Of a DNA stretch of 64,000 bases, positions 2,026 to 61,272 are shown piece by piece. Positions within the stretch are counted from its first letter, which is position 1. The number at the start of each line of letters is the position of its first letter. Under the pieces are notes generated by a model, which was not told where the DNA came from, searched no databases, and saw nothing but the letters and a program-made list of their open reading frames with translations. Made by a program: the position numbers and the translations under genes. The stretch comes from Planctomycetota bacterium. Lineage in GTDB: Bacteria > Planctomycetota > UBA1135 > UBA2386. The stretch is from the NCBI GenBank assembly GCA_965228735.1, contig OZ245838.1, positions 2,816,001 to 2,880,000 of the forward strand, written 5' to 3'.

Positions 2026-3495
2026 CTAGTAGCCGAACGTCGCCGCGACGGCGTTGCTCACGGCGATGCCGCCGGTGGCCGCCGCGTCGAGCGAAGCCGC
2101 CTGGAAGAACACGTCGAAGCCGATGAACGACGCGAGCGCGGGCACGGGGAACGAGTAGGTGCCGGTGCCGCCGCTCACGCCGAATAGCAACGTGAACTGC
2201 GCGCTCTGCCACAGGTCACACGACGCGCCGAGTCCGAACTGGGCGAGGTTGACGGGCAACGCGCCGAGCGCCGACGTCGAGTCCGAGAACCCGAAGCTCA
2301 CGAACGCGACGGCAGCCGCCGGATCGAGGTTGCTCGCGTCGAGCTGCAGCGTGGAACCGAGCACCGGCACGTTGGCCGCGGCGAGTGCCGGCACGCCGCT
2401 GCCGCCCGGGCAACCCGCGCCGTAGGTCGAAGCCACGGCCGCACACCCCTGGATCCAGGTCTCGTCCGTGAACGGCCCGAAGAACGCCGCGCCACCGCCG
2501 AACGACACGTGGCAGTCCCCCGGTCCCTCGGCGGTCGCGAAGCGCACGCGCGGCGCCGTCGGGCTGCCGAACGCGCCGGTGACGTCGGTCCAGCTCGTGC
2601 CGTCGAAGATCCAGGTATCGCTGAGCGGCGTCGTGCCGGACAGCGTGCTGTCGTAGCCACCGTGCATCACGTAGACGCCGGTCGCTTCGTCGTACAGCAT
2701 GCTCGCGCCCGCGCGTGCCGGCGGCAGCGGGCCGGTCGCCGGCGTGATGTCCGTCCAGGTATCGGTCACGGCCGAGTAGACCCAGGTGTCGTTGAACACG
2801 ATCTCGCCGTTCGGCCCGGGCGGGTTGTTGAAGTTGGTGCCGCCGAACAGCAGCACGCCGCCGAGCGACGTCGCGGTGCAGAGCGACGCCTGCGACCGCC
2901 GCTCGGGCGAGACCGCCGGCGTCGTCAGCGACCAGTCCGCGCCGTCGTACTCGAGCGTCTCGGCCGGCATCGGCACGATGCCCTGGAACAGCTCACCGCC
3001 GAACAGCACGACGCGCTGCCCGATCACGTCGAACGCCATCGACACCTCGCCGATGCCGTTGTTCGAACCGATGAGCGACCCCGGCGTGTTGGTCGTGGTG
3101 ACCTGGCTCCAGTTCGCGCCGTCCCACTCCCACGTGTCGTTCCGGTGGTTGCCGCCGATCAGCGACGCACTCAGTCCGCCGTAGAGCACCGTGCGATCGC
3201 GGAAGACGTCGTGGGCGATCCCCGCGAAGTAGCGCGCCGGCGGCGTCGTCGCCGGTGAGAGCTGCGCCCAATCGACGCCGTCCCACACCCACGTGTCGTC
3301 GTAGTTCGTCGGCGGGAACCCGGCGAGGTCCGCGCCACCGAACAGCAGCGTGTAGCCACCGGACAGGTGGTGCGCCATCGCCGGCTCGAGGCGCGGGGAC
3401 GGCGCGTTCGCGGGAGTCGCCTGGCGCCATTGTGCGGTAACGGAGGCGGTGACGAGGAGCGCCGAGGCGGCGACGAGGGCAGGACGATGCGTCAT
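2026..3495 (-). CDS. Secreted Kelch-repeat beta-propeller protein with conserved C-terminal module
   Basis: Signal peptide, then repeated LFGG...DTWxWDGxxW units. Start placed at MTHRPALV. Confidence 0.85.
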   Translation of the reverse strand: MTHRPALVAASALLVTASVTAQWRQATPANAPSPRLEPAMAHHLSGGYTLLFGGADLAGFPPTNYDDTWVWDGVDWAQLSPATTPPARYFAGIAHDVFRDRTVLYGGLSASLIGGNHRNDTWEWDGANWSQVTTTNTPGSLIGSNNGIGEVSMAFDVIGQRVVLFGGELFQGIVPMPAETLEYDGADWSLTTPAVSPERRSQASLCTATSLGGVLLFGGTNFNNPPGPNGEIVFNDTWVYSAVTDTWTDITPATGPLPPARAGASMLYDEATGVYVMHGGYDSTLSGTTPLSDTWIFDGTSWTDVTGAFGSPTAPRVRFATAEGPGDCHVSFGGGAAFFGPFTDETWIQGCAAVASTYGAGCPGGSGVPALAAANVPVLGSTLQLDASNLDPAAAVAFVSFGFSDSTSALGALPVNLAQFGLGASCDLWQSAQFTLLFGVSGGTGTYSFPVPALASFIGFDVFFQAASLDAAATGGIAVSNAVAATFGY

Positions 3496-3640
3496 GATGG
3501 AGTGCGGCGGGGTGGCAGGTCGGCGACGTTCGCGAGCGCGCCGACGGAGATGCCGATCGTAGAACCACGAGAACGAGCGGACCAGCGCGCCCCCCACCGC
3601 GACTGCCGCCACTGCCGCTTGGCCGTATCGTTACGGCGCC

Positions 3641-4525
3641 TCAGCGGCCTCGTGCCCGCTCGATCAACTCGGCGACCGCGTCGGTCTCGCAATACTGCGC
3701 GACCGCCTCGAGGTGCGACTGAACCTCGGTGCGAGCGAGGTCACGATCGAGCAGCTCCGCCGCGAGCCGCAGCGATGCAGCACCGGTGTTCAGGTGCGCG
3801 CAGCCGTTGACCTCGACCGCCGCGCGCAGCGACCGCAGGGCAGCCGCCGGATCGCCGCGGTCGAGCGCCCGGAGTCCGTCGATGTTCGCGACGAAGTTGA
3901 CGGCGCACTCGCACACGTGCGCGTTCCGCGGCAAACCCTCCCACCGCGTTCGCAGCTCGTCGTAGCGCGGCCAGTCCGCCTGTTCGACGGCATGGCGCAT
4001 GGCTCGACTCAGTTCGTGCGAGTGCCATTCCGGATCGGTCCTCGCCAACAACTCGTCGAACGTCGCCGCGTAGCGCGGGTCACCCAGCGCCCGCAACGCC
4101 TCGACGTAGACCTCGAGGAACTCGCGATCGCCCGCGAGCGGTGCGCCGACGCGATCCAGGGCGGCCACGGCGCGCTGCACCATTGCGAGGTCCGGCTGCC
4201 GCCGCGACGCGGCCGCCATCCACAACTGTCCTTCGAGGAACGCCTGGAGCGACGCGTCATCGAGTTGCCACGAGCGGATGCAGGCCTCGACATCATCCGC
4301 CGCCAACCCCGGGATCGATTGCCCATGGGGATCGGTGACGAGGAGGTACGGATCCGCTGCCGCGAGCTTCAGGACCGCAGTCCGCATCAGCTCTGCCGCG
4401 TCATCACCGTCGTAACGGAACGAGTTCTGGAAGAACCGCAGGCACTGAGAGAGCGAGGCGTCGCCGGCCCGCAGAGCCGCGACGTAACCGTCCATGGCGA
4501 GCTTCATGAAGCGATCCGACCTCAT
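3641..4525 (-). CDS. Hypothetical alpha-helical protein
   Basis: Protein-like composition with CEC and GCAH motifs. Start uncertain (4525 or 4537). Confidence 0.6.
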   Translation of the reverse strand: MRSDRFMKLAMDGYVAALRAGDASLSQCLRFFQNSFRYDGDDAAELMRTAVLKLAAADPYLLVTDPHGQSIPGLAADDVEACIRSWQLDDASLQAFLEGQLWMAAASRRQPDLAMVQRAVAALDRVGAPLAGDREFLEVYVEALRALGDPRYAATFDELLARTDPEWHSHELSRAMRHAVEQADWPRYDELRTRWEGLPRNAHVCECAVNFVANIDGLRALDRGDPAAALRSLRAAVEVNGCAHLNTGAASLRLAAELLDRDLARTEVQSHLEAVAQYCETDAVAELIERARGR

Positions 4526-4917: not shown

Positions 4918-5032
4918 CAGAGCTGCCCACATACGGCCGTCAGCTGGCATGTCACAGAGCTGCGCGGATTCGCCGCAGCCCCAGCCAGAGAATCACGTAG
5001 CACGCCGCGGCTCTCCTGGTCATTCCCTTCGC

Positions 5033-7645
5033 ATGGTGCTGCGAAACAAGACGATTGACCGCCGGTTTCGGCGGTTCTGCGAAACCGGTGACCCAGACGC
5101 CCTCGGCGACGTGTTCGACGCGACGGCCGGACGACTCATGAGGGTCGCGCTCTGGCTCGCCCGTAACCGGAACGACGCCGAGGACCTGCTCCAACGCACG
5201 TTCTTGCAGGCAATCGAAACGCGCGAGCAGTTTCGGATCGGCGAGCCCGTGCTGCCGTGGCTCATCGGGCTATTGGGCAACCAGACCCGCAAGCTACGTA
5301 GCGAGCGCGATCGGACGGCGGCGTCACGAGGTCTCGTCGACAAGGTCGATGACCCCGAGGTCGCAGTCGCTTCTCGCGAGCTCGCCGGTGCGGTGAAGGC
5401 CGTCAGTAATCGGCTCGGCGAGCCTTACCGCGATGTGCTGCTCCTGCACCTGGAGTCTGGGCTGAACGCCAAGGAGATCGCCGCACGACTCGATCGGCCG
5501 GCGGGGACGGTCCGAACGCAGTTGGTGCGCGCGCTGGAACTCCTGCGGCGACGACTGCCCAACGGGTTCGTCGCCGGCATGGTCGCCATCACGGCACCCG
5601 AGGTGTCGGCGTTGGCCGGCACGCGCGAAGAGATCGTGCGAGCCGCACATGCGGCGGTTCCTGCATCGGTCGCTTCCGTCGCGGCCGCCGGACTCGCTGT
5701 CGGAGGATCGATTGTGGCGAAGAAGTTGGCGGTAGCAGTATCGGCCCTCGCGCTCGTCGGTGGAATCACCATCTGGGCCATGGCCGCGGTGCGATCCGAT
5801 CCCGTCGCCGATTCAGCGGGAGAAAGTACGCGACTGGTGACGATGTCGGAGCCTTCCCGGAAGGAACCCACGCCGCACCGCCAGCTCGCCAGAACGCCAG
5901 GCGACAGCGGGAAGACGAAGTCAACGGACCACCAGCCCGAAACCTGGTCTCCGAACCTGATCGTCGTCGATGAGAGCGGGCAGCCCGTAGCAAACGCCGA
6001 GGTATCGATCTGGGCACCACGAAGGGTCGAGCCATCGCCGCGAGGAGGACGACGGTACGAGGGCCGGGAGAAGGCTGCCAGGGCGGAGCTCGTAACCGAC
6101 ACCCGTGGGCGGGCACGCGCCTCGGTCGACTTCGAAGCCTGTGTCGTGGCGGCGAACCGCGCCGACATCGGCCGAAGTCGCGAGCTCTGGCTGACCGCCA
6201 AGGGCGGGACGGCGACTCTCGTGCTCGAACCTCCGATTCGCCTACGTGGGCGCGTCGTCGACGAACGCGGAACGCCCGTGGCCGGGGCTTCGGTCGAAGT
6301 CAAGTGCGTGCCCCATACGGGCCTCTACCTCAATCGTGGCGCGCCTCCGACTCCGCCACCCGGAACCGTGGACCGCGACGGTCGTTTCTCGATCGACGTG
6401 TTCCGGGGCGCAAACTACACGTTGAGCGCGCGGCTACGCGAGCGACAGTCGTTTCGGGTGCGCGTCAGTGTCGACGATCGCGAACCGCTGCCCGTGACGC
6501 TTCGGTTCCCCGGAGCAACGAAGATCTCCGGCATCGTTGTCGACGGCTACGGACGACCGGTTCCGCGAGCCAAGGTCACCGCGTGGCGGATCCTGGCCCC
6601 CGACGATGATCACGCCGAACCCGAACGGGAGCGAGCTCTCGCCGATGCCGACGGCACCTTCGAGGTGATCGTCAGGTCGCACGCTCGCTACCAGTTGCTG
6701 GCGGCTGCGGACGGATACGCGACGAGTGCCCTTGCGAAGACCCAGACGACCCCGAAGGAACCGCACCCAAAGACGCAGCTCGTATTGCGGGAATTCGCAT
6801 CGATCACCGGGCGACTCGCAAGAGCCGACGGGCGTCCGCTGCCGGGCATCAAGGTCATCGCCAAACCCGAGTCGGGAGAGCCGTCGCCGCGGGCAGACAT
6901 CCCGAACCAAGAAGACCTCTTCCCACGAGTGAAGACATCCGTCACCGACGCTGACGGCAGGTTCGGGCTCCGGGTTCACCCGGACACCGCGTGGACGATC
7001 TCCGCCAGGCTGCAGCCCGGAAACTGGCGAATGGCCGTGCATCGACGCGGCGTCGCTCCCGGCACGACGAACCTGCTGATCACGGTGAGTGATGCTGAGT
7101 CACGGGGATGCGTAGTCGCCGGTCGTGTCCGGCGCCGCGACGGGCAGCCCGTAGGCTCGCTCCGGGTCGAAGTCGTCGATTACGATGACGACGGGAAACC
7201 CGTGACCTCGAGCCGCGTGCCGGCGAACGTCGAGGGCGACACGTTCACGTGCCCGCCGCTGCCGATCAACGCAACCTTCGCGCTACGGGTCCATGACGAA
7301 GACGACGAAGCCACGGCGCCCGCGATTCTCGGCCCTTTCGAAACCAACCGCGCCACGCTGACGCTCGACTGTTGGCTCGAGAATTGGGGACTACTGCCTG
7401 TCCGAGTGTTCAGTGCCGACGGAACACCAGCACTCGGCGTCGCTGTCTACCTTCGCCGCAGTACGCCATCGGGGTCCGATCACGTGGTCCGCGAGCCCGA
7501 CCTCGAGGGACGGGTGCCTGTTCACCGATGCATTCCAGGGCCACATCGGCTCTACGTGTCGCGCGATTCTCAGACCCTCGTCGAGCGCGATATCGAGGTG
7601 CAGAGCGGTGAGAACATGGAGGTCCTCGTCGAACTGCCGCGCTAA
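5033..7645 (+). CDS. ECF sigma factor fused to a TM helix and carboxypeptidase-regulatory-like (transthyretin-like) repeats
   Basis: Region 2 DAEDLLQRTF...PWL and region 4 EIAARLDRPAGTVRTQL, then a TM segment and repeated GRVVDxxGxPVxGAxV units. Confidence 0.85.
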   Translation: MVLRNKTIDRRFRRFCETGDPDALGDVFDATAGRLMRVALWLARNRNDAEDLLQRTFLQAIETREQFRIGEPVLPWLIGLLGNQTRKLRSERDRTAASRGLVDKVDDPEVAVASRELAGAVKAVSNRLGEPYRDVLLLHLESGLNAKEIAARLDRPAGTVRTQLVRALELLRRRLPNGFVAGMVAITAPEVSALAGTREEIVRAAHAAVPASVASVAAAGLAVGGSIVAKKLAVAVSALALVGGITIWAMAAVRSDPVADSAGESTRLVTMSEPSRKEPTPHRQLARTPGDSGKTKSTDHQPETWSPNLIVVDESGQPVANAEVSIWAPRRVEPSPRGGRRYEGREKAARAELVTDTRGRARASVDFEACVVAANRADIGRSRELWLTAKGGTATLVLEPPIRLRGRVVDERGTPVAGASVEVKCVPHTGLYLNRGAPPTPPPGTVDRDGRFSIDVFRGANYTLSARLRERQSFRVRVSVDDREPLPVTLRFPGATKISGIVVDGYGRPVPRAKVTAWRILAPDDDHAEPERERALADADGTFEVIVRSHARYQLLAAADGYATSALAKTQTTPKEPHPKTQLVLREFASITGRLARADGRPLPGIKVIAKPESGEPSPRADIPNQEDLFPRVKTSVTDADGRFGLRVHPDTAWTISARLQPGNWRMAVHRRGVAPGTTNLLITVSDAESRGCVVAGRVRRRDGQPVGSLRVEVVDYDDDGKPVTSSRVPANVEGDTFTCPPLPINATFALRVHDEDDEATAPAILGPFETNRATLTLDCWLENWGLLPVRVFSADGTPALGVAVYLRRSTPSGSDHVVREPDLEGRVPVHRCIPGPHRLYVSRDSQTLVERDIEVQSGENMEVLVELPR

Positions 7646-7811: not shown

Positions 7812-8987
7812 ATGCGTCTCGTGGTATCGATGGCCTTTCTCATCACCGCGTCAGCGGCATCACAGACCTTCATCGTCGACGCCGCCAACGGACCAGGTGC
7901 TCACTACACCGACCTGCCAGCGGCCGTCGCCGCGGTGCCCGATGGCGCCGTGCTGCTCGTTCGTCCAGGCCACTACACGGGGTTCGCGGTCGCAGGAAAG
8001 GGACTCTCGATCCTCGGAGAAGGGGCGAAGATCACCGGCTCGATCGCGCTCACGAGCACGCAGTCGCACCAGGGGATCGCGATCCGTGGGTTGCGTTGGA
8101 CATCGGCCCAGCTCCTGACTGGGGACAAGCTCCTCAAGTTGGCGAACTGCGCTGGTCCTGTGCTCGTCGAGACACTCGAGCAACCCGCTAGAACGGGCCA
8201 CTGCTCGGCGTGCGCCGTGCCAACCGGAATACACGCGACGTCGTGCGCCCAGATCTGTGTACGCGATTGCCAAATCGGCTGCACGGCCCTGTTCGACTCG
8301 TGCACGGTCACGATCGACTCCTGCCAGATCCGCGGGGAACACTCATCCGCGCCGGGCAACAACTTCGGGCGCTCCGCCGTGGTGTTGTGGGGTTCCGACG
8401 CGCAGGTCTGCGGCGCCTCCGATCTCCGGGGAGGCGATGGTTGGCTCGGGGGACTCGGCACGGCGTTCCCGGGGGTGGGCATTCAGATCTTTGCTCCATC
8501 GACCGTCCGCCTCCTCGACGGCCGGCTCCAGGGAGGACGATGGGGCCCCACCCTGTTTGGACCGCTCGGATCCGCGAACTCGACCAACACTCGCATGTCG
8601 CCAAGGGTGAAGCTCGTTCAGGGCTCCACCTACACGGTCAGCCTGAGCCAAACGGCGATGCCCAGCCTGTCGGCCAACAGCACAGTGCCCGGCGGCGCGA
8701 TCCACGCTGCGACGCGGACGGAGGTTGGCGATCTTGTGGTCCTCGCGGTGGGGTTGCGTAGCGCCACCGCATCGGTCCCCGGATTCGTCGACGGATTCTG
8801 GCTCGATCCAGTTGCGCACGTGTTCCAGGCGATCGGCGTGCAACAAGCCAGCGCCCCAGTAACCGGCACGATCAACGTGCCGAACTGGCCTGGGTTGGTC
8901 GGGCAGCAGCTAGTCTGGCACGCGGCCTGCTTCGGCCCCGTCACGGGGCAGCAGAACAGCAACCCGGCGATCAGCATCGTGCACTAG
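7812..8987 (+). CDS. Secreted beta-rich (beta-helix-like) protein with conserved C-terminal module
   Basis: Signal peptide and an N-terminal IVDAANGPGAHYTDLPAAV...VRPGHY motif. Confidence 0.7.
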   Translation: MRLVVSMAFLITASAASQTFIVDAANGPGAHYTDLPAAVAAVPDGAVLLVRPGHYTGFAVAGKGLSILGEGAKITGSIALTSTQSHQGIAIRGLRWTSAQLLTGDKLLKLANCAGPVLVETLEQPARTGHCSACAVPTGIHATSCAQICVRDCQIGCTALFDSCTVTIDSCQIRGEHSSAPGNNFGRSAVVLWGSDAQVCGASDLRGGDGWLGGLGTAFPGVGIQIFAPSTVRLLDGRLQGGRWGPTLFGPLGSANSTNTRMSPRVKLVQGSTYTVSLSQTAMPSLSANSTVPGGAIHAATRTEVGDLVVLAVGLRSATASVPGFVDGFWLDPVAHVFQAIGVQQASAPVTGTINVPNWPGLVGQQLVWHAACFGPVTGQQNSNPAISIVH

Positions 8988-10522: not shown

Positions 10523-11886
10523 GGGAGTGTGCGATGAACGGTGTATTCGCGTGACGGCTGGTGGGATCCTCTGACCCGTAGGGAGCCCACCGATGACCCC
10601 GAAGAAGAATGACCGCCACCGAATCCCGGACGAGCTGATCGACCAGCTCCTCGCCAACTACGAGAAGCCAGAAGACCTGACAGGAAAGGACGGCATCCTC
10701 AAGGAGCTGACGGCCCGGCTGCTCGGCCGAGCCCTCGAAGGCGAGATGACCGAGCACCTCGGCTACGAGAAGCACGCACCGCGTGCCGAGGGCACGAGCA
10801 ACGCGCGCAACGGATCACGCAGCAAGACGATCAAGGTCGAGGACGGCGAGCTCGAGATCGAGGTGCCGCGCGATCGCGACAGCACGTTCGAGCCCGAGAT
10901 CGTCAAGAAGCGCCAGAGACGCTTCGCGGGCTTCGACGAGAAGATCCTGGCGCTCTACGCCCGCGGCATGACCGTCCGCGACATCCAGGGCCACCTGGAG
11001 GAGCTGTACGGCGTCGAGGTCTCGCCATCGCTGATCTCGAGCGCCACGTCGGCGGTCCACGAAGACGTCCTGGCCTGGCAGAGCCGGCCGCTCGAGCCGG
11101 TCTACCCGATCGTCTTCCTCGATGCGCTCGTCGTGAAGGTGCGCGACGAAAGCGTCGTCCGAAACAAGTCGGTTTACCTGGCGATCGGCGTCACGCTCGA
11201 CGGCCGCCGCGAAGTCCTCGGGATCTGGATCGAGCAGACGGAGGGCGCCAAGTTCTGGCTGAAGGTCATGAACGAGCTGAAGACGCGGGGCGTCCAGGAC
11301 ATCCTGATTGCGTGCTGCGATGGCCTGAAGGGCTTCCCGGACGCGATCGAGCACGTGTTCCCGCAGGCCACCGTGCAGACCTGCATCGTGCACATGATCC
11401 GGAACTCGCTGCGCTTCGTCAGCTACAAGGATCGCAAGGCCGTCGCCAAGGACCTCAAGCCGATCTACACGGCGGCCAACCGTGAAGCCGCCGAGGCAGC
11501 GCTGGATGCCTTCGACAAGAAGTGGGGCCGCCGCTACGAGATGATCACCTCGTCCTGGCGAGCGAACTGGGAGCGTGTCGTGCCGTTCCTCGACTTCCCG
11601 CCCGAGGTCCGGCGCGTGATCTACACGACCAACCAGATCGAGGCGCTCAACTCGAGCCTGCGCAAGCTGCTGCAGTACCGCGGCCACTTCCCGGACGACA
11701 AGTCCGTCACCAAGCTGCTCTACCTCGCGCTGCGTCGCTTCGAGAAGAAGTGGACGCGTGCGCTCTGGAATTGGAGCGCCGTCCTCGGGCAGCTCGCTAT
11801 CTTCTTTCAAGGCAGGATACCTGCCCTGTAACCGTGACCTCACTCCGCCAGCTGGTCGCCGTTTACACCGTTAGCTGCACACTCCC
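10523..11886 (+). mobile_element. IS256-family element 1
   Basis: Imperfect terminal IRs GGGAGTGTGC...AACGGTGTA at both ends. No target duplication. Confidence 0.9.
10593..11831 (+). CDS. IS256-family (Mutator) DDE transposase
   Basis: Motifs EMTEHLGY, VPRDR, FLDA, CCDGLKG, QTCIVH and YTTNQIE. Confidence 0.95.
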   Translation: MTPKKNDRHRIPDELIDQLLANYEKPEDLTGKDGILKELTARLLGRALEGEMTEHLGYEKHAPRAEGTSNARNGSRSKTIKVEDGELEIEVPRDRDSTFEPEIVKKRQRRFAGFDEKILALYARGMTVRDIQGHLEELYGVEVSPSLISSATSAVHEDVLAWQSRPLEPVYPIVFLDALVVKVRDESVVRNKSVYLAIGVTLDGRREVLGIWIEQTEGAKFWLKVMNELKTRGVQDILIACCDGLKGFPDAIEHVFPQATVQTCIVHMIRNSLRFVSYKDRKAVAKDLKPIYTAANREAAEAALDAFDKKWGRRYEMITSSWRANWERVVPFLDFPPEVRRVIYTTNQIEALNSSLRKLLQYRGHFPDDKSVTKLLYLALRRFEKKWTRALWNWSAVLGQLAIFFQGRIPAL

Positions 11887-11952
11887 GCGGGAGCGCCACG
11901 AACGGTAGTGCAGCATGCGTTCTGTAAACCGCCCGAGGCAGCTTGACGCAGT

Positions 11953-12029
11953 CGGCGGTGGTCGTCGCGGTCGGTCTGGGCGCTGCACCCTGGGTGCAGT
12001 GGCCAGGCCGACCGCGACGACCACCGCCG
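11953..12029. repeat. Long inverted repeat inside the IS256-2 left end
   Basis: Stem of about 37 bp with a 3-nt loop; the outer 22 bp are perfect. Confidence 0.9.
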
Positions 12030-12101
12030 GCGCGGACGGATGCTTCAAGTCGGCGAGTCACGACGCTCAGCTTTTGTTAACCACAACGAAAGCAGAACGA
12101 A

Positions 12102-13277
12102 GTGACCCACCAATCCGAAAGTAGCACGCTCGACACCGTCTTGGAATCCATCGCAACGCAGGGTCTGGGAGGGATCGCGGACGCGATCCGCGTCCTCGTG
12201 AACGAGGCCATGAAGATCGAGCGATCCGCGTTCCTGGGCGCCGGTCCAAACGAGCGTACCGAGTCACGACGGGGCTACGCCAACGGCTTCAAGCCGAAGA
12301 CCGTGGCGACTCGCGTCGGCGCGATCGAGTTCGCCGTCCCGCAGGTCCGCGAGGCCGTCGACGGCGAACGCTTCTATCCGACGGCACTCGAACGCGGGAT
12401 TCGCTCGGAGCGCGCCCTGAAGCTCGCGGTCGCCGAGATGTACGTCCAGGGCGTCTCGACCCGCAAGGTCGCCGCGATCACCGAGGAGCTCTGCGGAGTA
12501 CAGGTGTCGTCCCAGCAGGTCTCCCGGGCCGCCGCGGCACTCGACGACGAGCTGCAGCAGTGGCGGATGCGCGAGCTCGGCCGGTGCCGCTACCTGGTCC
12601 TCGATGCCCGCTACGAAAAGGTCCGGCACGCCGGCTCCGTCATGAGCGCCGCCGTCCTGATCGCGACGGGCGTCGATGATGCAGGCCATCGCTCGGTCCT
12701 CGGCGTCAGCGTGTCGCGCTCGGAAGCCGAGGTCCACTGGCGCGACTTCCTCGACAGCCTGCGTGAACGTGGCCTGCACGGGCTCGGACTCATCGTCAGT
12801 GACGACCACTCTGGCCTCCGCCAAGCTTTGGCGGCGAGCTTTCCCGGAGTCGCTTGGCAACGCTGCCAGTTCCACCTGCAACGCAACGCCGCTCCACGAG
12901 TGCCGACCGTCTCGTTGCGCCCGTCGATCGCTCGTGGACTTCGTGCGGTCTTCAACGCTCCAGACCGACCTGAGGCCGAACGGCTTCTTGATAGGCTTCT
13001 GGAGGATCACGCGGAAACCGCTCCCGACTTTGTCCGGTGGGCTCGCGACAACGTCCCCGACGGCTTCGCTGTCTTCGCGATCCCGGCGACGCACCGTCGC
13101 TGCCTTCGCACGACCAACATGCTCGAGCGCCTCAACAAGGAGCTCCTGCGCCGCACCCGCGTTGCGACGCTCTTCCCCAACGACGCCTCTCTTCTCCGGC
13201 TCGCCACCGCGGTCCTCATGGAGATCAGCGAGGACTGGGTGACTGGCCGTCGCTATCTCTCCATGGACGCTGAGTGA
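12102..13277 (+). CDS. IS256-family DDE transposase
   Basis: Motifs EMYVQGVSTRKV, LDARYEKVR, SDDHSGL, WQRCQFH and TTNMLE. Confidence 0.95.
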   Translation: MTHQSESSTLDTVLESIATQGLGGIADAIRVLVNEAMKIERSAFLGAGPNERTESRRGYANGFKPKTVATRVGAIEFAVPQVREAVDGERFYPTALERGIRSERALKLAVAEMYVQGVSTRKVAAITEELCGVQVSSQQVSRAAAALDDELQQWRMRELGRCRYLVLDARYEKVRHAGSVMSAAVLIATGVDDAGHRSVLGVSVSRSEAEVHWRDFLDSLRERGLHGLGLIVSDDHSGLRQALAASFPGVAWQRCQFHLQRNAAPRVPTVSLRPSIARGLRAVFNAPDRPEAERLLDRLLEDHAETAPDFVRWARDNVPDGFAVFAIPATHRRCLRTTNMLERLNKELLRRTRVATLFPNDASLLRLATAVLMEISEDWVTGRRYLSMDAE

Positions 13278-24014: not shown

Positions 24015-26537
24015 ATGCGCTTGCGTCCCGACCTGTCGCTCGTTCCGTTCCCGTTGTTCGCGTTCGCGACGGCAAGCCCGACCCAGTCGTTCGTCGATTC
24101 GGAACATACGTTCGTTCCCGACGTCGGACCGCACGTGCTCGTCGCCGCCGACTTCGACGGCGACGGGGACGAGGACCTGCTCGCGCAGGCGACCAATCCG
24201 CTGCTCGGCGGCTGGCGGTTGCTGGAGAACGACGGCAACGGCGTGTTCGAAGCGCGGCAGGGCACCCAGCTGGTCGCCGCCAACACGTTCTCCAGCGCGA
24301 CGGCTGCGGACCTCGACGGCGACGGTCACATCGACGTGGCGGTCACGGGCTACCTGTCGTTCGGCGGCGGTGCGTGGGTGCTGTGGAACGACGGCACCGG
24401 CTCGTTCACCGTGCAGGTGATCGCGACGGTCGGACCGTTCCACCGCGTGCTGCCCGTCGACCTCGACGGCGACAACGATCTCGATCTCGCGATCGCGGCC
24501 GGCGCGAGTCATGCTCCGGCCGAGTGCATGCTGTTCCGGAACGACGGCAACCGCACGTTCACCGACGTCTCCACCCTGATGCGCCCCGCGCCGCCGGAAC
24601 AGCGGGCCAGCGTCGCCGCGCTCGACGTGCAGGGCGACGGACGTGTCGACCTCGTGTTCGACGGCAACCCGGTGCTGACGATGCTGCAGAACCAGAACGG
24701 TGAGTTCGTCGCGACCCCCGGGGCACTCGGGCCGCCGCTGCCGCTCTATGGCGTGGGTGCGGTGGACACCGACGGCGATGGCGACGCCGATCTCGTCGGC
24801 CAATCCGGAACGGGCTCGACCGGCATCGGCATCACGCTGTTACGGAACGACGGCGGCGGGACGTTCACCCGCCTGTTCGCACCGACTGCCGACGTGGCGG
24901 CATGGCGCGTGGCCGACATCGACGGCGACAACGACCTCGACTTCCTGACGCAGCGGCTCACGCTCAACAGCATCCAGCTCTGGCGCAACGATCCGGGCTT
25001 CACGCTCGTCGACGTCACGGCGACGGGCCTCGTGGCCGACCCCGACGGGACGCTCCTGACGGCGGCGTTCGTCGACAGCGACGGTGACGGTGACCCGGAC
25101 CTCTACCACCCGAGCCTGCGCGACCTGCGGCACAACGACGGGACCGGCACGTTCCGCGATCTGCGGCCGACGCGCTCGCCCGACGCGCCGCGGGGCGCGG
25201 CGCCGACCGACCTCGACGGCGACGGCGACATCGACCTCGTCGGCTTCGACGCTCCGACCGAGGCCGGCTTCGCGGGCCCGGCCGAACTCGCGCTCTGGCG
25301 GAACCTCGGCACGGGCGACTTCGCGAAGGTCACCGTCCTCGGCGTCATGGATGTCTGCGACGAGTCAGCCGTCGTCCTCTTCGACATGGACGGCGACGGC
25401 GACGACGACATCTGGGCGTTGACCTGCGCCAACCTCGATCGCGTCTGGGAGAATGCCGGCGCGACCGGCTACATCGAGCGCTCGGCCACCGCGTTCCCGG
25501 CGGATTCGCGCTTCGACCACTCGGTGCTCGTGCACGACTACGACGGCGACGGCGATCTCGACGCGTTCGTCGCGCGCGACTTCTACTTCGATTCGTTCTA
25601 CATCAACCAGGGCAACTTCACGTTCACCGAAGAAGGGACGACGCGGCTCACCGACGGCGAGGACACGAACGCCGCGGTCGCGCTCGACTTCGACGACGAC
25701 GGCGACATGGACCTCGCCCTCGCCAACACGACCACCCCGCTGCGATTGTTCGAGAACGACGGCACGGGTTACTTCAGCGATGCGACCGCGGGCCGGGTCC
25801 CGAACCTGACCACGACGTTTCGGTACATGCTCGACTTCGACATGGACGGCGACGGCGACAGCGACCTGTTGCTCGTCGAGCAATCGCCGCTCGCGCAACC
25901 GACGCTGCTGCGGAACGACGGCGGCGTGTTCGTCGAGACCGCGCTCCCGCTGATGCCGAGCGGCAGCCGCGACTGGCCGTCAGCCGCGGACTTCGACCTA
26001 GACGGCGACGTGGACCTGCTGATCGGCAGCCTCTGGCTGCAGAACGACGGGACCGGCACGTTCACGCTGGCGCCGACGCAGCCGGAGATCGCGGCACCCG
26101 AGGTCCGCCGCCCGGTCACGCTCACGGATCTCGACGGCGACGGCGATCCCGACGTGCTGTCGGCGCCGCTGCAGTATCACCGCCACCGCCAGCTCGAGAA
26201 CCGCATCCCGCCGCGCACCGGCCTCACCGCGGTCGCGCGGCTGCACGCACTGCCCGAGGCAGCGAACTGGACGCCGTTCGGGGTCCTCTACACCGCCGCC
26301 GGCCTCGCGCCCGCGACCAGCGTCGCGCCGTTCGGCACGCTGTTCCTGCAGCAGTCGACGCTGACCCCGCTCGTCACGCTGTTCGTCGACCCGGCCACGT
26401 TCACGGCCGACGCCGCGTATCCCATCCCGGCCAACCCGGGACTCATCGGCGTCTCGTTCCCGATGCAGGCGATCGTCGCGCACGGCCCCGCGAGCGCGCA
26501 CACGACGAACGCGGTGTTGGTGACGGTGGAGCAGTAG
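24015..26537 (+). CDS. Secreted FG-GAP/VCBS repeat protein with conserved C-terminal module
   Basis: Many DxDGDGDxDL and NDGxGxF repeats. Confidence 0.9.
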   Translation: MRLRPDLSLVPFPLFAFATASPTQSFVDSEHTFVPDVGPHVLVAADFDGDGDEDLLAQATNPLLGGWRLLENDGNGVFEARQGTQLVAANTFSSATAADLDGDGHIDVAVTGYLSFGGGAWVLWNDGTGSFTVQVIATVGPFHRVLPVDLDGDNDLDLAIAAGASHAPAECMLFRNDGNRTFTDVSTLMRPAPPEQRASVAALDVQGDGRVDLVFDGNPVLTMLQNQNGEFVATPGALGPPLPLYGVGAVDTDGDGDADLVGQSGTGSTGIGITLLRNDGGGTFTRLFAPTADVAAWRVADIDGDNDLDFLTQRLTLNSIQLWRNDPGFTLVDVTATGLVADPDGTLLTAAFVDSDGDGDPDLYHPSLRDLRHNDGTGTFRDLRPTRSPDAPRGAAPTDLDGDGDIDLVGFDAPTEAGFAGPAELALWRNLGTGDFAKVTVLGVMDVCDESAVVLFDMDGDGDDDIWALTCANLDRVWENAGATGYIERSATAFPADSRFDHSVLVHDYDGDGDLDAFVARDFYFDSFYINQGNFTFTEEGTTRLTDGEDTNAAVALDFDDDGDMDLALANTTTPLRLFENDGTGYFSDATAGRVPNLTTTFRYMLDFDMDGDGDSDLLLVEQSPLAQPTLLRNDGGVFVETALPLMPSGSRDWPSAADFDLDGDVDLLIGSLWLQNDGTGTFTLAPTQPEIAAPEVRRPVTLTDLDGDGDPDVLSAPLQYHRHRQLENRIPPRTGLTAVARLHALPEAANWTPFGVLYTAAGLAPATSVAPFGTLFLQQSTLTPLVTLFVDPATFTADAAYPIPANPGLIGVSFPMQAIVAHGPASAHTTNAVLVTVEQ

Positions 26538-46547: not shown

Positions 46548-46575
46548 TCAAGGACCAGCGGTTCCGACCCGATAG
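46548..46575 (+). promoter_or_regulatory. Possible sigma28 (FliA) promoter
   Basis: TCAAG-N15-CCCGATAG just upstream of the flagellin gene. Confidence 0.45.
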
Positions 46576-46585
46576 CGGGGCCCGG

Positions 46586-47344
46586 ATGAGCCTCACGATC
46601 AGCAACGACTCGCACGGCATGTTGCGCGCGCTGTACGCGACGGACCAGCGCATGCAGCGGTCGTTCGCCCGTCTCGCCACCGGCAAACGGATCGCCTCGG
46701 CCGCGGATGACGCGGCCGGCCTCGCGATCAGCCAGCGGTTGTCCGCGCAAGAACGCGGCTTCCACCAGGGCGTGCGCAATCTCGCCGATGGCTACGGCTA
46801 CGCGGCGACGGCCGAGGGCACGCTCGGCTCGAGCGCCGACACGCTCGGTCGCATGCGCGAGCTCGCGGTGCAGGCGCAGAACGGCACGCTGAGCGCCGCG
46901 GACCGCGCGACGATCCAGGAAGAGTACGACCAGCTCGCGGCGACGCTCGACCAGACGGCGCCGGCCGCCGAGAGCAAGACGTTCACGGACGGCAACGGCG
47001 GCGAGGTGACGCTCGATGTCGCGGATGCGAGCGCGAGCGGCCTCGGCGTCAGCGGTCTCGATCTGTCGGACCCGACGTCGATCGACGCGATCGACCAGGC
47101 GATCGACGACGTCTCGTCGGCCCGCAGCTCGCTCGGCACGGCGATGAATCGCATGGAGTACCGCTCCGAAGCGGTGAGCGGCCAGGCCGAATCCGCGGCC
47201 GCAGCGCGCTCTCGGATCGAGGACGCGGACTTCGCCCAGGAAGTTGCGAATCTGACGCGGGACCGCATCCTGCAGCAGCTGCAGGTCTCGGGCCTGCAGA
47301 TGGCTGGCCGCAACAAGGGCGTGGCGCTCGACCTGTTCGCGTAG
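46586..47344 (+). CDS. fliC: Short flagellin
   Basis: RLATGKRIASAADDAAGLAIS, RMRELAVQAQN and RSRIEDADFAQE. Confidence 0.88.
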   Translation: MSLTISNDSHGMLRALYATDQRMQRSFARLATGKRIASAADDAAGLAISQRLSAQERGFHQGVRNLADGYGYAATAEGTLGSSADTLGRMRELAVQAQNGTLSAADRATIQEEYDQLAATLDQTAPAAESKTFTDGNGGEVTLDVADASASGLGVSGLDLSDPTSIDAIDQAIDDVSSARSSLGTAMNRMEYRSEAVSGQAESAAAARSRIEDADFAQEVANLTRDRILQQLQVSGLQMAGRNKGVALDLFA

Positions 47345-47407
47345 CCAGCGCACATCTCTCCGCCGCGACGACGCACGCGACCGCCGAGTTGCGCTACCAT
47401 CCGAGGC

Positions 47408-49013: not shown

Positions 49014-50420
49014 ATGCACGGGATCAGGCAATCCGACGCGGCTCTGCTCGCCCTCGCCACGCTCCTCTCGCTCGCGGCGGCGCCGGCGCAATCGGTGATG
49101 CGGCTCAGCACGGCGAGCGGACCGGGCTCGCGCCATCCGATCACGGCGCTCGACGCCGACGTCGTGGTGTGGGTCGCGTTCGTCGCCGGCACGCGCGAGC
49201 TCATGCTGTCCGCGACCGACGGCAGCGCGCCCGTGCAGCTCACGACCGGCGCCGACGTCCGCGTCGGGCACGGCACGTTCGACCAATGGTCGCCGATCTC
49301 CGTGAGCGACGATGGCGAACGGATCGCCTACTGGAACGCGCAGGGCGTGCACGTCCTCGACCGCATCGCGAACACGGACACGATCGTCGCGCCCGCCACG
49401 CTGGCGCCGATGCCGCAGCTCAGCGGCGATGGCACGCGCCTCGTCTACCAGGCGCCCGTGTCCGGACCGACGGGCGTCGCCAACCTCGAGGTGTTCGTCG
49501 TCGACGCGGATGGCGCGACCCCGCCCGTGCAGGTGACGACGGGCAGCGGCGGCGGCCGGCGTCTGCCGCACGTGCGCGGCGACCGCGTCGTGTTCCAGAA
49601 CCGCGTCGGCTACGAGATGGAGCTGTTCGTGCACGACCTCGCGACGAGCACGACGGGCCCGGCGCTGACGAACGGCAGCGGCGGCGGCAACCGCCACGGC
49701 CGGCTCACGCCCGACGGCGATGCAGTCCTCTACGAGGCCGTCGTCTCTGGCGAACAGACGGTGATGCGCCTCGACCTCGCCGGCACCACCCCGACCGTCG
49801 TCGGCGGCAACGCGAGCGGCACGCGCATGCCCGCGGGCGACGGCGACGACCAGATCGTGCTGCAGACCGGTGTCGGCACGCCCCTGCAACCGGGCGTCGA
49901 GCTCGTCGATCCGGCGGCGACGACCCTGTCGGGCGGCTCGCGCGGCGGTCACCGCCTGCCGCGGCTCGACCGCCACGGCCAGCTCGTCGTCTGGCAGGAA
50001 GAGGACCAGGGCCAGGTCGAGGTGTTCGCGCTGCGCCGGGTGTGGCCGACGACCGCGACGACGTTCGGCACGGCCGGCACCCCGTCCGTCGGCACGCTGC
50101 AGTCGTTCGACCGCCTGTGGCGGCTCAGCCAGGAGCTCGGCGTGCACACGCAGCTGCCGACGAATGCGCCGGCGTTCTTCGTCGTCGGGGTGCAGCAGCA
50201 GCAGGTCCCCGTCTCGGGCGCCCCGGGCAACACCCAGTACGTCGTTCCGGACAGCAGCATCGTGGTCCTGATCGATAGCAACGGCGACGCGATGGTCGGC
50301 ATCCCGCTCACGGCGAATCTGCTCGGCTTTGCGTTCTACGCCCAGTTCGCGCTCTTCGACCCGCCGGCCAACGCGCTGGGCGTCGTCGCGTCGGCCGCAT
50401 GGACCGTTCAGGTCCGCTGA
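49014..50420 (+). CDS. Secreted TolB-like propeller protein with conserved C-terminal module
   Basis: SDDGERIAY, SGDGTRLVY and PVQLT motifs. Confidence 0.7.
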   Translation: MHGIRQSDAALLALATLLSLAAAPAQSVMRLSTASGPGSRHPITALDADVVVWVAFVAGTRELMLSATDGSAPVQLTTGADVRVGHGTFDQWSPISVSDDGERIAYWNAQGVHVLDRIANTDTIVAPATLAPMPQLSGDGTRLVYQAPVSGPTGVANLEVFVVDADGATPPVQVTTGSGGGRRLPHVRGDRVVFQNRVGYEMELFVHDLATSTTGPALTNGSGGGNRHGRLTPDGDAVLYEAVVSGEQTVMRLDLAGTTPTVVGGNASGTRMPAGDGDDQIVLQTGVGTPLQPGVELVDPAATTLSGGSRGGHRLPRLDRHGQLVVWQEEDQGQVEVFALRRVWPTTATTFGTAGTPSVGTLQSFDRLWRLSQELGVHTQLPTNAPAFFVVGVQQQQVPVSGAPGNTQYVVPDSSIVVLIDSNGDAMVGIPLTANLLGFAFYAQFALFDPPANALGVVASAAWTVQVR

Positions 50421-50642: not shown

Positions 50643-53609
50643 ATGCGTAGATTCCTCCTCGCGAGCCTCGCGCTCGCGGTCTCCCCGCTCGCTCAAGAGC
50701 CGGGCAAGTTCCCCTCCCCGCAGCAGGCCTACAACCGCTTCCTGGAGCAGACTCCGGGTCGCTGGATCGCCCAGTGGCATCCCGCCACGGGCACGCCGAG
50801 CGCCATGTACGGCAGCGGCCTGCGCCTCGACGGCTGGAACGAGAACTCGCTCGAACACGCTCGCGGGCACGCGAACGCGCTGCTCGTGACCTACCGCGAC
50901 GTGCTCGGCCTCGGCACCTCGACGTGGCAGGAGAGCATCGGCGCGCGCATGGGCCGCACCTGGTCCTTCAAGTTCGACCAGTACTTCCGCGGGCTGCCGG
51001 TCATCAACGGTCGCGCCGACATCCGCATCAACATGCGCGGCGTCGTCGCGCAGATGGGCAGCGTCGCGGTCCCGGTCCCGGCCACGTTCAACATCACGCC
51101 GAAGGTCGCGGAAGAACTCGCGACGGCGCTGGCGTGGGCGAAGGCGGGCGACCCGACGGGTGCGCCGCAGCCCGGCACGATCGCAGCACCGCGCCTCGTC
51201 ATCTGGGGCAACACGGCCGCCGAGGACGGGGAACCGACCCACGCGCTCGCCTGGGAAGTGCCGATCAGCAACGTCGACATCACCGGTCAGGGCCCGATCG
51301 GACGCCACTACGTCGACGCGCAGACCGGTGCCCTGCTGCACTACGCCTCGGACAAGCACGAGTGCCACGGCACCATGTGCCGCAATGCGATCCATCGCGT
51401 CGCCCCTCCGGAGGAGACGGCCGAGACCGCGCTGCCGGTCCCGACGACGGTCACGGTCCAGGCGTGGACGCGCACGGGCAACGACGCCTACAGCGCGCTC
51501 GTCAACACCCCGCTGCAAGGCATCGTCATCAACGTTCCCGGCGTCGGGCTCCGCACGACGGACCAGAACGGCGAGTTCGTGATCGACATCAACTCGCCCG
51601 TCACGATCTCGGTCGGCCAGCTCAACGGCACGCACTTCGACCCGATCGTCGGCTCGAGCGCCCCGTCGGCCTCGGTGACCGTGAACCCGGGCGTCGCGGC
51701 GACGCTGCAGATCGGCTCGGCCGGCTCGTCGACGGCGCAGGCCGCGCACCCGACGTCGGCCTACTGGGTCGACCGCACCAACGAGTGGTTCCGTTCGATC
51801 CTCGGCAATAGCGCGCAGCTCAACGCGATCAGCAGCGTCGACATCGACGTCAACATCAACAGCAACTGCAACGCGTTCTACACGAACAACTCGATCAACT
51901 TCTACACGGCCGGCGGCGGCTGCGCGAACACCGCGTTCTCGACCGTCGTCGCGCACGAGTGGGGTCACGGCATCGACGCGCAGTACGGCGGCATCAGCAA
52001 CAACACCGGCGACGGCCTGAGCGAAGGCTGGGGCGACATCATCGGGATGTACCTCGTGGACAGCCCGCTGCTCGGCAGCGGCTTCCAGTCGCCGAACGTC
52101 GCGCTGCGTCGCGGTGACAACAACCGCAGCTACCCGCAGACCGGTGCTGGCGTGCACACGGCCGGCCAGGTCTGGATGGGCTTTGCGTGGCGTCTGCGCG
52201 AGAACCTGCGCGCCAGCTACGGGACCCCGACGGCGATCGCGATCTCGGACGACATCGTCATCACGTCGATCGTCGCCGACGCGACCAACCAGGTCGACGC
52301 GGTGCGCGAGGTGTTCATCGCGGACGACGACGACGGCAACCTGCTCAACGGCACGCCGAACTACAACGAGCTCGCCGCTGCGGCGGTCACCAAGAACCTG
52401 CCCTACCCGGAGATCCAGTTCGGGCAGATCAGCCACACGCAGCTGCCCAACACCAACATCCCGCTGACGCCGCGCAAGGTCGTCTGCACGGCGCAGGAGA
52501 TCCTGCCCGGCGCGATCACCGCGGTGACGATGCGCTACCGCGTCGGCAACGGCGCGCTGCAGACGCGCAGCATGTTCCCGACGGGCAATGCCGACGAGTT
52601 CGAGGCGCTGCTGCCGGGCGTGCAGGCCGGTGGCATCAGCTACTGGATCGAGGCGACCCATACGAGCACCAGCGGCAACAACACGATCCGGCTGCCCGCG
52701 ACGGGCGACTTCAGCTACAGCGTGGACGGCTCGTTCTCGCCGTTCTGGACGGACGACTTCGAGGGTGCGTCGCTCGGCTGGACGCACGCCCAGGTCCAGA
52801 CGCAGGATGACTGGCAGCTCGGCACGCCGACCGGCAAGAGCGGCACCAGCCAGGGCGTCTCGTGGGCCGACCCGTCGAGCGCGGCATCGGGCGCCAACTG
52901 CTGGGGCAACGACCTCGGCCCGACGGGCTTCAACGGCGCCTACCAGCCCAACGTCTACAACTACCTGCGGTCGCCGATCATCGACTGCACGGGCAAGTTC
53001 GGCGTCGCGCTGCGCTTCAACCGCTGGCTGACCGTCGAGGAGGCCATCTACGACCAGGCGACGATCCTCGTGAACGGCGTCCAGGTCTGGCAGAACCCGC
53101 AGAACGGGCAGTTCCGCGACACCGCGTGGACCCAGGTCCAGTACGCGCTGCCGATGGCGGACAACAACCCGAGCGTCCAGATCGAGTTCCGCCTGCAGTC
53201 CGACGGCGGCCTGCACCTCGGCGGCTGGAACATCGACGACATCGAGATGGGTGAAGTCATCCCGGTGCAGTTCGACGCCACGCTCGAGATGCTGCCGGAG
53301 CAGGTCGTGCAGAACGGCCAGATCAACGCGTTGATCACGACGGGTATGCAGGCGCAGCCGTTCATCCTCGCGATCGGCTCCGACGCCGGCCCGACGCTGT
53401 TCCCGGGTGTGCCCCCGATCCTCGTCGGCGGTCCCAACATCATCAGCCTGCCGGCGTTCTCCAACGCGCTCGGCATCTACAACTTCTCGTTCAACGCCCC
53501 GCCGGTGCCGGGCGTGACCGGGATCACCTGGTACAGCCAGGTGGTGACGCTCGACTCGACGTCGCAGATCGTCACGTCGAACCAGTTCATCAACTTGTTC
53601 ACGCAGTAG
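50643..53609 (+). CDS. Secreted M4/M36-type zinc metalloprotease with accessory beta domains
   Basis: FTP/PepSY propeptide, NAFY, HEWGH, SEGWGD, GVH and GWNIDD. Confidence 0.88.
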   Translation: MRRFLLASLALAVSPLAQEPGKFPSPQQAYNRFLEQTPGRWIAQWHPATGTPSAMYGSGLRLDGWNENSLEHARGHANALLVTYRDVLGLGTSTWQESIGARMGRTWSFKFDQYFRGLPVINGRADIRINMRGVVAQMGSVAVPVPATFNITPKVAEELATALAWAKAGDPTGAPQPGTIAAPRLVIWGNTAAEDGEPTHALAWEVPISNVDITGQGPIGRHYVDAQTGALLHYASDKHECHGTMCRNAIHRVAPPEETAETALPVPTTVTVQAWTRTGNDAYSALVNTPLQGIVINVPGVGLRTTDQNGEFVIDINSPVTISVGQLNGTHFDPIVGSSAPSASVTVNPGVAATLQIGSAGSSTAQAAHPTSAYWVDRTNEWFRSILGNSAQLNAISSVDIDVNINSNCNAFYTNNSINFYTAGGGCANTAFSTVVAHEWGHGIDAQYGGISNNTGDGLSEGWGDIIGMYLVDSPLLGSGFQSPNVALRRGDNNRSYPQTGAGVHTAGQVWMGFAWRLRENLRASYGTPTAIAISDDIVITSIVADATNQVDAVREVFIADDDDGNLLNGTPNYNELAAAAVTKNLPYPEIQFGQISHTQLPNTNIPLTPRKVVCTAQEILPGAITAVTMRYRVGNGALQTRSMFPTGNADEFEALLPGVQAGGISYWIEATHTSTSGNNTIRLPATGDFSYSVDGSFSPFWTDDFEGASLGWTHAQVQTQDDWQLGTPTGKSGTSQGVSWADPSSAASGANCWGNDLGPTGFNGAYQPNVYNYLRSPIIDCTGKFGVALRFNRWLTVEEAIYDQATILVNGVQVWQNPQNGQFRDTAWTQVQYALPMADNNPSVQIEFRLQSDGGLHLGGWNIDDIEMGEVIPVQFDATLEMLPEQVVQNGQINALITTGMQAQPFILAIGSDAGPTLFPGVPPILVGGPNIISLPAFSNALGIYNFSFNAPPVPGVTGITWYSQVVTLDSTSQIVTSNQFINLFTQ

Positions 53610-59255: not shown

Positions 59256-59376
59256 CGCCCCGTTCATCGGCACTTCCGCACCCGACCCCAACAGGGATTC
59301 CACCACCCTCCCGCTACCGCCCACGGCGCGGGTTGCACAACTGCGCTCCGCCGCGAGAATGTCCGGTCCGCCCGCG

Positions 59377-61272
59377 ATGCTCCTCGCCCCCACCCGTTCC
59401 CTGCAACGCGCCCTGCGCATTCTGGCCACCGCGGCGACCGTGACCGCGCTCGCCGCGCCCGGCGTGGCGCAGCAGCCCGCGGCATGGGCGACGAAGGCGA
59501 TCCCGGGGGGCGTCGATCCGACGCGGATCGACGGGCGCGGCAAGCTCACGACCTACGACGCGGGCACCGAGCTGCACGTGTTCTCGGCCGTCCACCGGCG
59601 CTGGCAATCGCTGCCGAAGTCGCCCGGTGCGCCGCTCCGCATCATGAACGACTGCCTGCTCGTGATGGACGGCACCACGTGGACGGCGTTCTCGAGTTAT
59701 GCGGGCCGCTTCGAGCCGCTGACCGTCGGTGCCAGCGCGCAGCTCGTGAACCCCGGCTCGCAGAAGAACGACTCGATCCTGCTCGTCGACGACGGCGCTG
59801 CCGCGCACGCGTTCAGCTGCTTCACCGGGACCTGGACGACGCGCGCCCTGCCGCCGACTACGGGTTTGTCCGTAGAGCGCCACGTCGCGCTGCTCGCGGA
59901 CGGCGCCAACGTCAGCGCGTTCGACGGGTTCACCGGCACGTTCCACGACCACACGCTGCCGCAGCCGGCAACCGCCCTCGACTGCGGCGGCACGGCCGGG
60001 CTCGCGCTCGCGGCCGGCACCGTGCACGCGTTCTCGGCCCACCACCGGACATGGACGAGCCACGCGCGGCCGAACGGCACGCTGCTCGCGCGCGGCGACG
60101 ACTGGGCGCTGTTCTACGACAGCAACCAGATGGTCGGGTACAGCGCGCTCGAGGGGCGCTTCGCGACGTTCCCGGTCGGCGCGACGAACGTGCTCCTCCA
60201 GCGCGACCTGTTCGGCATCGTCGATACCACGGTCGGCCCGATCGCGTTCTCGGCAGCGCGCACGGCCTTCACCCCGGGCGTCGGCCCGAGCACCGCGACG
60301 ATCCGCGCGGGCAACGCGACGGCGATCCTCAGCGATGCGGGGCAGGTCACGGCCTACAGCGCGGTGACCGCCACGGCCGCGACGCTGGCGGCGGCCTCGA
60401 CCGCCGAAGGCGTCGGTGACTGCATCGCGTTCGCCGTCGACACCGCGACGGGATCGCCGTGGTGTTTCTCGGGGCTCACGGGCACGTGGCACCAGGCACC
60501 GGTCGACACCGTGCCCGGCCCGCCGCAGGCGACGGCGACGTCGATCCTGCTCGCGGCGACGAACGGCGCCTACGCGTTCACGGCCAGGAGCGCGACCTTC
60601 GTGCCGCTGGCCCGACCGGGGCTCGCGCTCATCGGCAACGACCAGAGCTCGGTCGCCGCCGCGTGGGACGCGACGCACCTGCACGCGTTCGACGCTCGTG
60701 CCGGGCTCTGGCGCAGCACGCCGCGCACCGGCACGACCGCTCCCCTGGTGCAGATCTGGCGCACGGCGATGTTCCTGCTCGACGGCTCGACCCTGCACGG
60801 CTTCGGGAGTCAGGACGGCACGTGGAGCGCGCTGCCCCTGACGCAGAACTACCAGTTCGGCCGCGCCAACTCGGAGAGCAGCCGCGTCGCCACGGCCAAC
60901 GCGCTGCACGCGCACGCGGCCGTCCCGATGACGATGGCGCACGCGCAGTTCCCCGAGTTTCGCAGGCCGCAACCGACCGGCACGAGTGCGCGATTCTCGG
61001 TCGCGCTGCCGGGCGGCGGCGTCGCGGTGTTCGCCGGCGGCATCTTCGCCGGCAGCACGACGACGATTCCGGGTCTCGGCGCGCTCCACCTGCAGAGCCC
61101 GCTCGCGACCGTGCTCGGCACGGCGTCGGCACCGACGGAACGCGCGACGTTCGAGTTCCCCGTCCCGAACGTCCCGACGCTCACGGGCACGCAGCTCGGT
61201 TTCCAATCGCTCGCCCTGCCGACGCAGGGCCCCACCTACCTCACCGACGCGACCGGCCTCTACGTGCTCTGA
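59377..61272 (+). CDS. Secreted repeat (propeller-like) protein with conserved C-terminal module
   Basis: Repeated HAFSxxxGxW units and a signal peptide. Confidence 0.7.
   Translation: MLLAPTRSLQRALRILATAATVTALAAPGVAQQPAAWATKAIPGGVDPTRIDGRGKLTTYDAGTELHVFSAVHRRWQSLPKSPGAPLRIMNDCLLVMDGTTWTAFSSYAGRFEPLTVGASAQLVNPGSQKNDSILLVDDGAAAHAFSCFTGTWTTRALPPTTGLSVERHVALLADGANVSAFDGFTGTFHDHTLPQPATALDCGGTAGLALAAGTVHAFSAHHRTWTSHARPNGTLLARGDDWALFYDSNQMVGYSALEGRFATFPVGATNVLLQRDLFGIVDTTVGPIAFSAARTAFTPGVGPSTATIRAGNATAILSDAGQVTAYSAVTATAATLAAASTAEGVGDCIAFAVDTATGSPWCFSGLTGTWHQAPVDTVPGPPQATATSILLAATNGAYAFTARSATFVPLARPGLALIGNDQSSVAAAWDATHLHAFDARAGLWRSTPRTGTTAPLVQIWRTAMFLLDGSTLHGFGSQDGTWSALPLTQNYQFGRANSESSRVATANALHAHAAVPMTMAHAQFPEFRRPQPTGTSARFSVALPGGGVAVFAGGIFAGSTTTIPGLGALHLQSPLATVLGTASAPTERATFEFPVPNVPTLTGTQLGFQSLALPTQGPTYLTDATGLYVL

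Follow-up and report, generated by a model that had tools for sequence, protein, structure and literature searches.

What does it mean that six unrelated exported proteins, encoded within one stretch of a planctomycete genome, end in the same module? The window, meaning the whole stretch analysed here, comprises 64,000 nucleotides of a Planctomycetota bacterium (assembly GCA_965228735.1, contig OZ245838.1, positions 2,816,001 to 2,880,000 of the forward strand). An initial annotation, made from the sequence alone, had proposed a shared C-terminal sorting or anchoring module on six of its proteins. These tails are one real, large and uncatalogued domain family. On homologous proteins of other planctomycete genomes the same slot is filled by dockerins which, judged by analogy, are the closest working counterpart of the domain and were not named in that annotation. 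We favour, at slightly less than an even chance, the reading that the domain may be an uncleaved, non-covalent handle binding a protein partner in the cell envelope.

Six different proteins with one C-terminal domain

The six open reading frames (ORFs) and all peptides quoted in the initial annotation are present in the translations where it had placed them. The proteins and their domain copies are as follows, with E-values from a profile built without the six.

2026..3495 (-): Kelch beta-propeller protein with a signal peptide, ending in the domain; the most likely start of the gene is 3495
2029..2427 (-): domain copy 1, structure-modelled, Cys pair present (E 9.9e-21)
7812..8987 (+): exported protein that Pfam does not match, belonging to a passenger family with 23 members in this genome, ending in the domain
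8622..8984 (+): domain copy 2, of a diverged subfamily (E 3.3e-5)
24015..26537 (+): FG-GAP repeat protein, ending in the domain
26175..26534 (+): domain copy 3 (E 3.3e-7)
49014..50420 (+): beta-propeller protein with weak likeness to TolB, ending in the domain
50049..50417 (+): domain copy 4 (E 9.4e-18)
50643..53609 (+): M4/M36-like zinc metalloprotease (HExxH), ending in the domain; its homologues in genomes without the domain end in dockerin-type domains
53268..53606 (+): domain copy 5 (E 2.4e-7)
59377..61272 (+): exported protein with repeats, matched by neither Pfam nor NCBIfam, ending in the domain
60892..61269 (+): domain copy 6 (E 8.3e-9)

Pairwise identity among the six tails is 14-23%, and their kinship is therefore not evident pairwise. 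The leave-out profile was built from the members found in the genome, minus the six and all sequences at least 35% identical to them (30/299 removed). It matched all six tails in the search of 61,526 ORFs to which its E-values refer (9.9e-21 to 3.3e-5), and no reversed decoy scored at an independent E-value (iE) below 0.01 in the genome ORF search, so the claim of a single shared module holds. No Pfam or NCBIfam model matches the six tails. The tail pattern described at the outset is real, but it covers only the last third of a folded domain of about 125 residues. Some details of the early labels are weaker: the starts at 7812 and 59377 are Met codons but lie inside longer frames, and the names TolB-like and M4 rest on matches below cut-off (TIGR02800, E 0.0016; PF01447, E 0.003).

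Copies in the genome and their position

The genome (7.19 Mb, 93% complete, 5,586 genes called) was searched as 61,526 six-frame ORFs, starting from a profile of the six tails that was iterated with alignment by hidden Markov model; a MAFFT-based iteration drifted. The search settled at 299 ORFs (iE<0.001), and in 276 of them the domain ends no more than 20 residues before the stop. Adding two diverged subfamilies, each linked at an hhalign probability of 93%, brings the copies to 333, with 309 terminal. In the first round of a search restricted to tails, 362 of 4,748 matched at E<0.01; among the controls, 6 of 2,551 random internal windows did so and no reversed tail. Since 299 to about 360 copies stand against 5,586 called genes, domain-bearing proteins make up 5-7% of the proteome. 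The description as C-terminal is thus correct for about 92% of members and too strict for the 23/299 that are not terminal, 12 of which have the domain directly after the signal peptide, while 11 are trailed by 32-45 residues. At least seven genes consist of a signal peptide and the domain only; they are dispersed in the genome and divergent. None of the 299 members holds two copies.

Co-occurrence with signal peptides was examined with a heuristic (a hydrophobic N-terminal stretch followed by small residue-Gln) rather than a trained predictor. It scored 229 of 289 members and 781 of 4,459 other proteins, and many of the misses are miscalled starts, the Kelch protein among them. No transmembrane segment was seen in 277 members, and lipobox-like starts are rarer in members (9/240) than in other soluble exported-like proteins (241/1486). 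BLAST clustering sorts the 291 passengers into 111 groups. Scans of 82 and 62 members returned Kelch, FG-GAP and ELWxxDGT propellers, proteases, sulfatases, oxidases and lectin-like domains, and all three over-cut-off choice-of-anchor B proteins of this genome, as well as its choice-of-anchor I protein, bear the domain. In most members Gln directly follows the predicted signal peptide; despite this, glutaminyl cyclase PF05096 has no match in the genome, other cyclase types not having been searched.

One passenger family of 15 genes is a predicted jelly-roll (for example L153, 6463-7560, minus strand), where the 32-45-residue extension often comes after the domain; its 96 homologues are all unnamed. 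One copy with the extension was modelled as a rigid two-domain protein (predicted template-modelling score 0.91), from which we infer that the domain may be inserted into the jelly-roll.

In the same 301 Planctomycetota genomes used throughout, the domain was found in 60, with expansion in 55 (6-14 of 14 scored candidates match) and a single match in 5, which bears out the suggestion of a lineage-restricted feature. The five single-copy genomes revealed no ancestral locus, and the lone copy of one of them (G265, L060) lies on a chimeric-looking contig where an unrelated gene begins mid-frame. Relatives of the domain come from metagenome-assembled genomes, mostly labelled Planctomycetota. There are 32,928 matching cluster representatives; among the 150 best, the domain is terminal in 147, some possibly as fragments, and in the 1.2 Mb looked at of a small carrier genome of another family 16 of 17 matches are terminal.

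Predicted fold and surface

The AlphaFold model of the domain, based on a 65-row alignment, reached a pLDDT of 96.5 and is an immunoglobulin (Ig)-like sandwich of seven strands with an extra, hydrophobic flap of about 25 residues in which Leu, Phe, Gly and Pro abound. The copies share a median identity of 21%, and conservation is strongest at a Pro, a Gln, several Gly and a Ser/Thr-Asn pair ahead of the last strand. Two Cys are coupled (both in 113 rows, first only in 3, second only in 48, neither in 34), and this coupling suggests a disulfide. The domain was compared with known ones as the initial annotation had proposed, and no characterised domain matched: Pfam and NCBIfam matched none of 65 tails, PDB sequences gave nothing below E 0.15 and Foldseek with the model nothing below E 0.001. 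A wide structural search returned generic Ig-like rows (best Z 9.0 across 88 residues), with the C-terminal domain (CTD) of the type IX secretion system (T9SS) absent from the rows shown, and an Atlas search returned unnamed Planctomycetota clusters. The literature searched holds no account of the domain, although it was largely without subscription journals and supplementary domain tables, which could list the family; the accessible part of 10.1101/817700 does not mention secretion or C-terminal domains.

These surface properties invite the view that the domain binds outer-membrane lipid, lipopolysaccharide or exopolysaccharide directly, without a protein partner. Charged residues are few (median about 7.6%, with Lys at 0.2%), the hydrophobic flap is conserved, low sequence conservation is tolerated, lipobox-like starts are depleted and no cognate gene was found, all of which would suit such binding. 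Lipid-binding ML proteins do occur among the weak Foldseek rows, but with template-modelling scores of about 0.3 and root-mean-square deviations of 8-13 they lend no support. Glycan-binding modules, moreover, are often tandem, whereas the domain is always single. We regard direct envelope binding as improbable.

Exchange with dockerins at the same slot

Dockerins are binding modules, and the two types considered here (PF00404, NF041540) occupy the slot of the Ig-like domain on homologous passengers. Homologues of the window protease are present in 23 of 59 genomes, namely 14/15 carriers, 9/10 dockerin-expanded genomes and 0/34 others. At carrier loci 20 of 21 end in the Ig-like domain, and at non-carrier loci all nine end in dockerin-type domains, with Dockerin_1 above cut-off in two of the five tails scanned. 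The homologue search for the protease returned close relatives only; the Elusimicrobia homologues have no such tail. Choice-of-anchor B proteins repeat the pattern, with dockerin-type domains at six of seven non-carrier loci (NF041540 above cut-off in the one GC-type case scanned). Of their 23 carrier loci, seven match our profile, seven are similar by eye, four have another tail, labelled IPT/TIG-like by eye, and five are cut or misread. The view that the tail fills a slot used elsewhere by anchoring domains is borne out by both passengers. In addition, a Kelch protein with an N-terminal dockerin matches three proteins of this genome in which the Ig-like domain is N-terminal.

The expansions do not overlap in the genomes examined. 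Of the 301, 5 are saturated with the GC-type dockerin and 15 with a dockerin-I-like domain; the 60 domain-positive genomes include none of these 20, and the three mass expansions never coincide. Carriers have only 1-3 stray dockerin copies, in seven genomes, and no dockerin matched in the genome studied here. These genomes are kin and not independent, for which reason counts are given without a p-value. Cohesins occur in 10/15 dockerin-I-like genomes, 0/5 GC-type genomes and 1/9 carriers.

Like the Ig-like domain, dockerins are mostly C-terminal, at times N-terminal, and massively expanded on exported proteins. They differ in that a dockerin is a helical EF-hand pair with a duplicated calcium-binding loop-helix, whereas our domain is predicted to be all-beta; the calcium-loop motif is found in only 4/374 domain tails, and in contrast to dockerins the domain has no cohesin in its genome and is always single. 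Dockerins near type II systems are described in Omnitrophota (10.1101/2023.11.21.568195), and a planctomycete "planctosome" has been proposed (PMC6461901).

Two side observations concern these slots. In the f21 family genomes (L168, L170, L192, L193, L199) the domain is present, yet these passengers end in the IPT/TIG-like tail, which is perhaps a fourth handle type. In the dockerin-I-like lineages (L299-L318), all 20 cohesin-hit ORFs inspected also have a dockerin-like domain, some as alternating arrays (L311), and such proteins could build branched networks.

If copies of the domain bound each other instead, they might assemble into a mesh or surface layer, with the domain-only proteins as its filler and cargo displayed by the rest. 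The stand-alone genes fit this picture, the cohesin-plus-dockerin proteins of the sister lineages could chain in a comparable way, and an Ig-domain surface-layer protein appears as a weak Foldseek row. That row is not significant (E 4.5e-3), however, and dispersed, divergent domain-only genes and 21% identity speak against a lattice, which leaves self-assembly a quite remote prospect.

Comparison with sorting systems and search for machinery

The initial annotation had likened the tails to T9SS, PEP-CTERM and LPXTG signals; neither a likeness to the PEP-CTERM and LPXTG type nor a cleaved signal of the T9SS type is supported. A cleaved signal of one of these systems would share the terminal position and the many-passenger pattern, and the genome does contain one exosortase and one C25-like protein. 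Tripartite signals consist of a motif, a transmembrane helix and a basic cluster (10.1101/2023.06.07.544157). LPXTG, PEP-CTERM, GlyGly-CTERM and MYXO-CTERM resemble our domain in that each is a single module at the C-terminus of many exported proteins that are otherwise unrelated; the domain, in contrast, is folded, and 0/374 tails have the motif or the transmembrane segment with a basic cluster. No PEP-CTERM-like tail exists in the genome, and no exosortase is co-distributed with the domain (rhomboid and CPBP families were not searched): exosortases occur in 15/33 carriers and 8/17 other genomes (23/50 in total).

The type A T9SS CTD of Bacteroidota (TIGR04183, PF18962) is likewise an Ig-like sandwich at the chain end and occurs once per protein; it sits on many Sec substrates whose signal peptide is followed by Gln, and the cargo is similar. 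It spans about 72 positions against about 125 in our domain, and no profile match connects them. PorV (PF19572) was not found in the genome with a working positive control; SprA, PorP and TIGR04183 also gave no match, but their controls were silent too. A heuristic screen found no giant outer-membrane barrel, only ordinary families and small unnamed barrels. Unlike the T9SS CTD, the domain also stands at the N-terminus, inserted or alone. A cleaved signal of a known system is therefore largely refuted and, in our estimation, extremely unlikely. Slot exchange, free placement and stand-alone genes together make a retained handle the better fit, and from the placement of the copies it would seem that the domain is not cleaved off the chain end.

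A second type of sorting signal would be a secretion tag that a secretin-based exporter (type II, or a cluster of a tetratricopeptide repeat (TPR) secretin with ExbBD) recognises in the periplasm and that is dispensable afterwards. The single, terminal, Ig-like arrangement recalls the T9SS CTD, the passengers are typical secreted cargo, and the genome encodes seven secretins. Orthologues of GspD occur in 19/20 carriers and the TPR-secretin in 33/33. Both are, however, also found in most non-carriers (35/44 and 44/47; 54/64 and 77/80 in total), copies that are inserted or lack a passenger are hard to explain by a pure tag, and the exchange partner is a binding module. We consider such a tag unlikely. 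The gspDEF locus shows that an export route exists which is not specific to the domain.

Phylogenetic profiling for a co-distributed translocon or peptidase, as had been suggested, yielded none: GspD, the TPR-secretin and exosortase were rejected as dedicated machinery because their presence does not track the domain, and the C25-like protein is a weak partial match as a processing candidate. Proteins shared with 1.2 of the approximately 2.4 Mb of the small carrier genome numbered 519, of which 196 have hydrophobic segments, with no obvious candidate among those listed.

Elsewhere in the genome (G000:C1:6765000-6785000, L084), genes for TPR proteins, ExbB and two ExbD proteins lie between those of two long secretins, one of which has TPR itself; an actin-family gene is adjacent. 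Nearly all genomes of the phylum that were examined have the secretin pair (77/80), and the cluster is possibly a motor-driven secretin system.

A possible retained handle in the cell envelope

According to the handle reading, exported proteins with the domain would leave the cytoplasm by Sec, the domain would fold in the periplasm, and the tagged proteins would probably cross the outer membrane via the general type II secretion system. At the surface the domain would bind a common protein partner, be it a scaffold, an adaptor or another copy, and enzymes and propellers of hundreds of kinds would be retained on this shared envelope partner.

Several points weigh against this reading. An identity of about 21% among members is loose for one protein partner, and none was found in this analysis. 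A repeat-scaffold screen of 260 large exported proteins gave no result, and a recurring small passenger considered as a cohesin was modelled as a jelly-roll with weak lectin-like rows. Cohesin PF00963 is absent from this genome and present in one of nine carriers although its positive control matched, and since the GC-dockerin genomes lack Pfam cohesins, the dockerin slot need not imply cohesin binding. The exchange is evidence of a common slot, not of a common mechanism; the exclusivity of the expansions may rest on three or four events; the f21 carriers use another tail on the exchanged passengers; and the signal-peptide calls are heuristic only.

A broader proposal, possible but rather doubtful, is one secretome-display system with interchangeable handles, of the Ig type in some lineages and of two dockerin types elsewhere. 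The Ig type would then stand for a protein-docking pair not described before, by which a diderm that has neither T9SS nor sortase arranges 5-7% of its proteome in an enzyme coat or mesh at the surface. This would be the principle of the cellulosome, reinvented with another fold.

The domain marks 5-7% of the genes in abundant, mostly uncultured planctomycetes, and a single profile predicts a planctomycete secretome whose present annotation is hypothetical. Because dockerins take its place elsewhere, the loose notion of a sorting tag becomes a claim that can be tested, on how PVC (Planctomycetes-Verrucomicrobia-Chlamydiae) bacteria retain enzymes at the surface in the absence of T9SS and sortases. 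It also names the lineages for comparison, and bears on the role of the many non-cellulosomal planctomycete dockerins.

Other features of the window

4949-7645 (+): extracytoplasmic function sigma factor with a long fused extension that contains carboxypeptidase-regulatory-like repeats
10593-13277 (+): tandem pair of Mutator-family transposases, in the lowest-GC part of the window
31004-48844 (-): cluster of BatA/vWA, DUF58, MoxR ATPase and ABC ATPase genes with an unnamed ORF of 1,869 residues
62390-64000 (-): Omp85/BamA gene running past the window end, the best of three Omp85 matches in the genome

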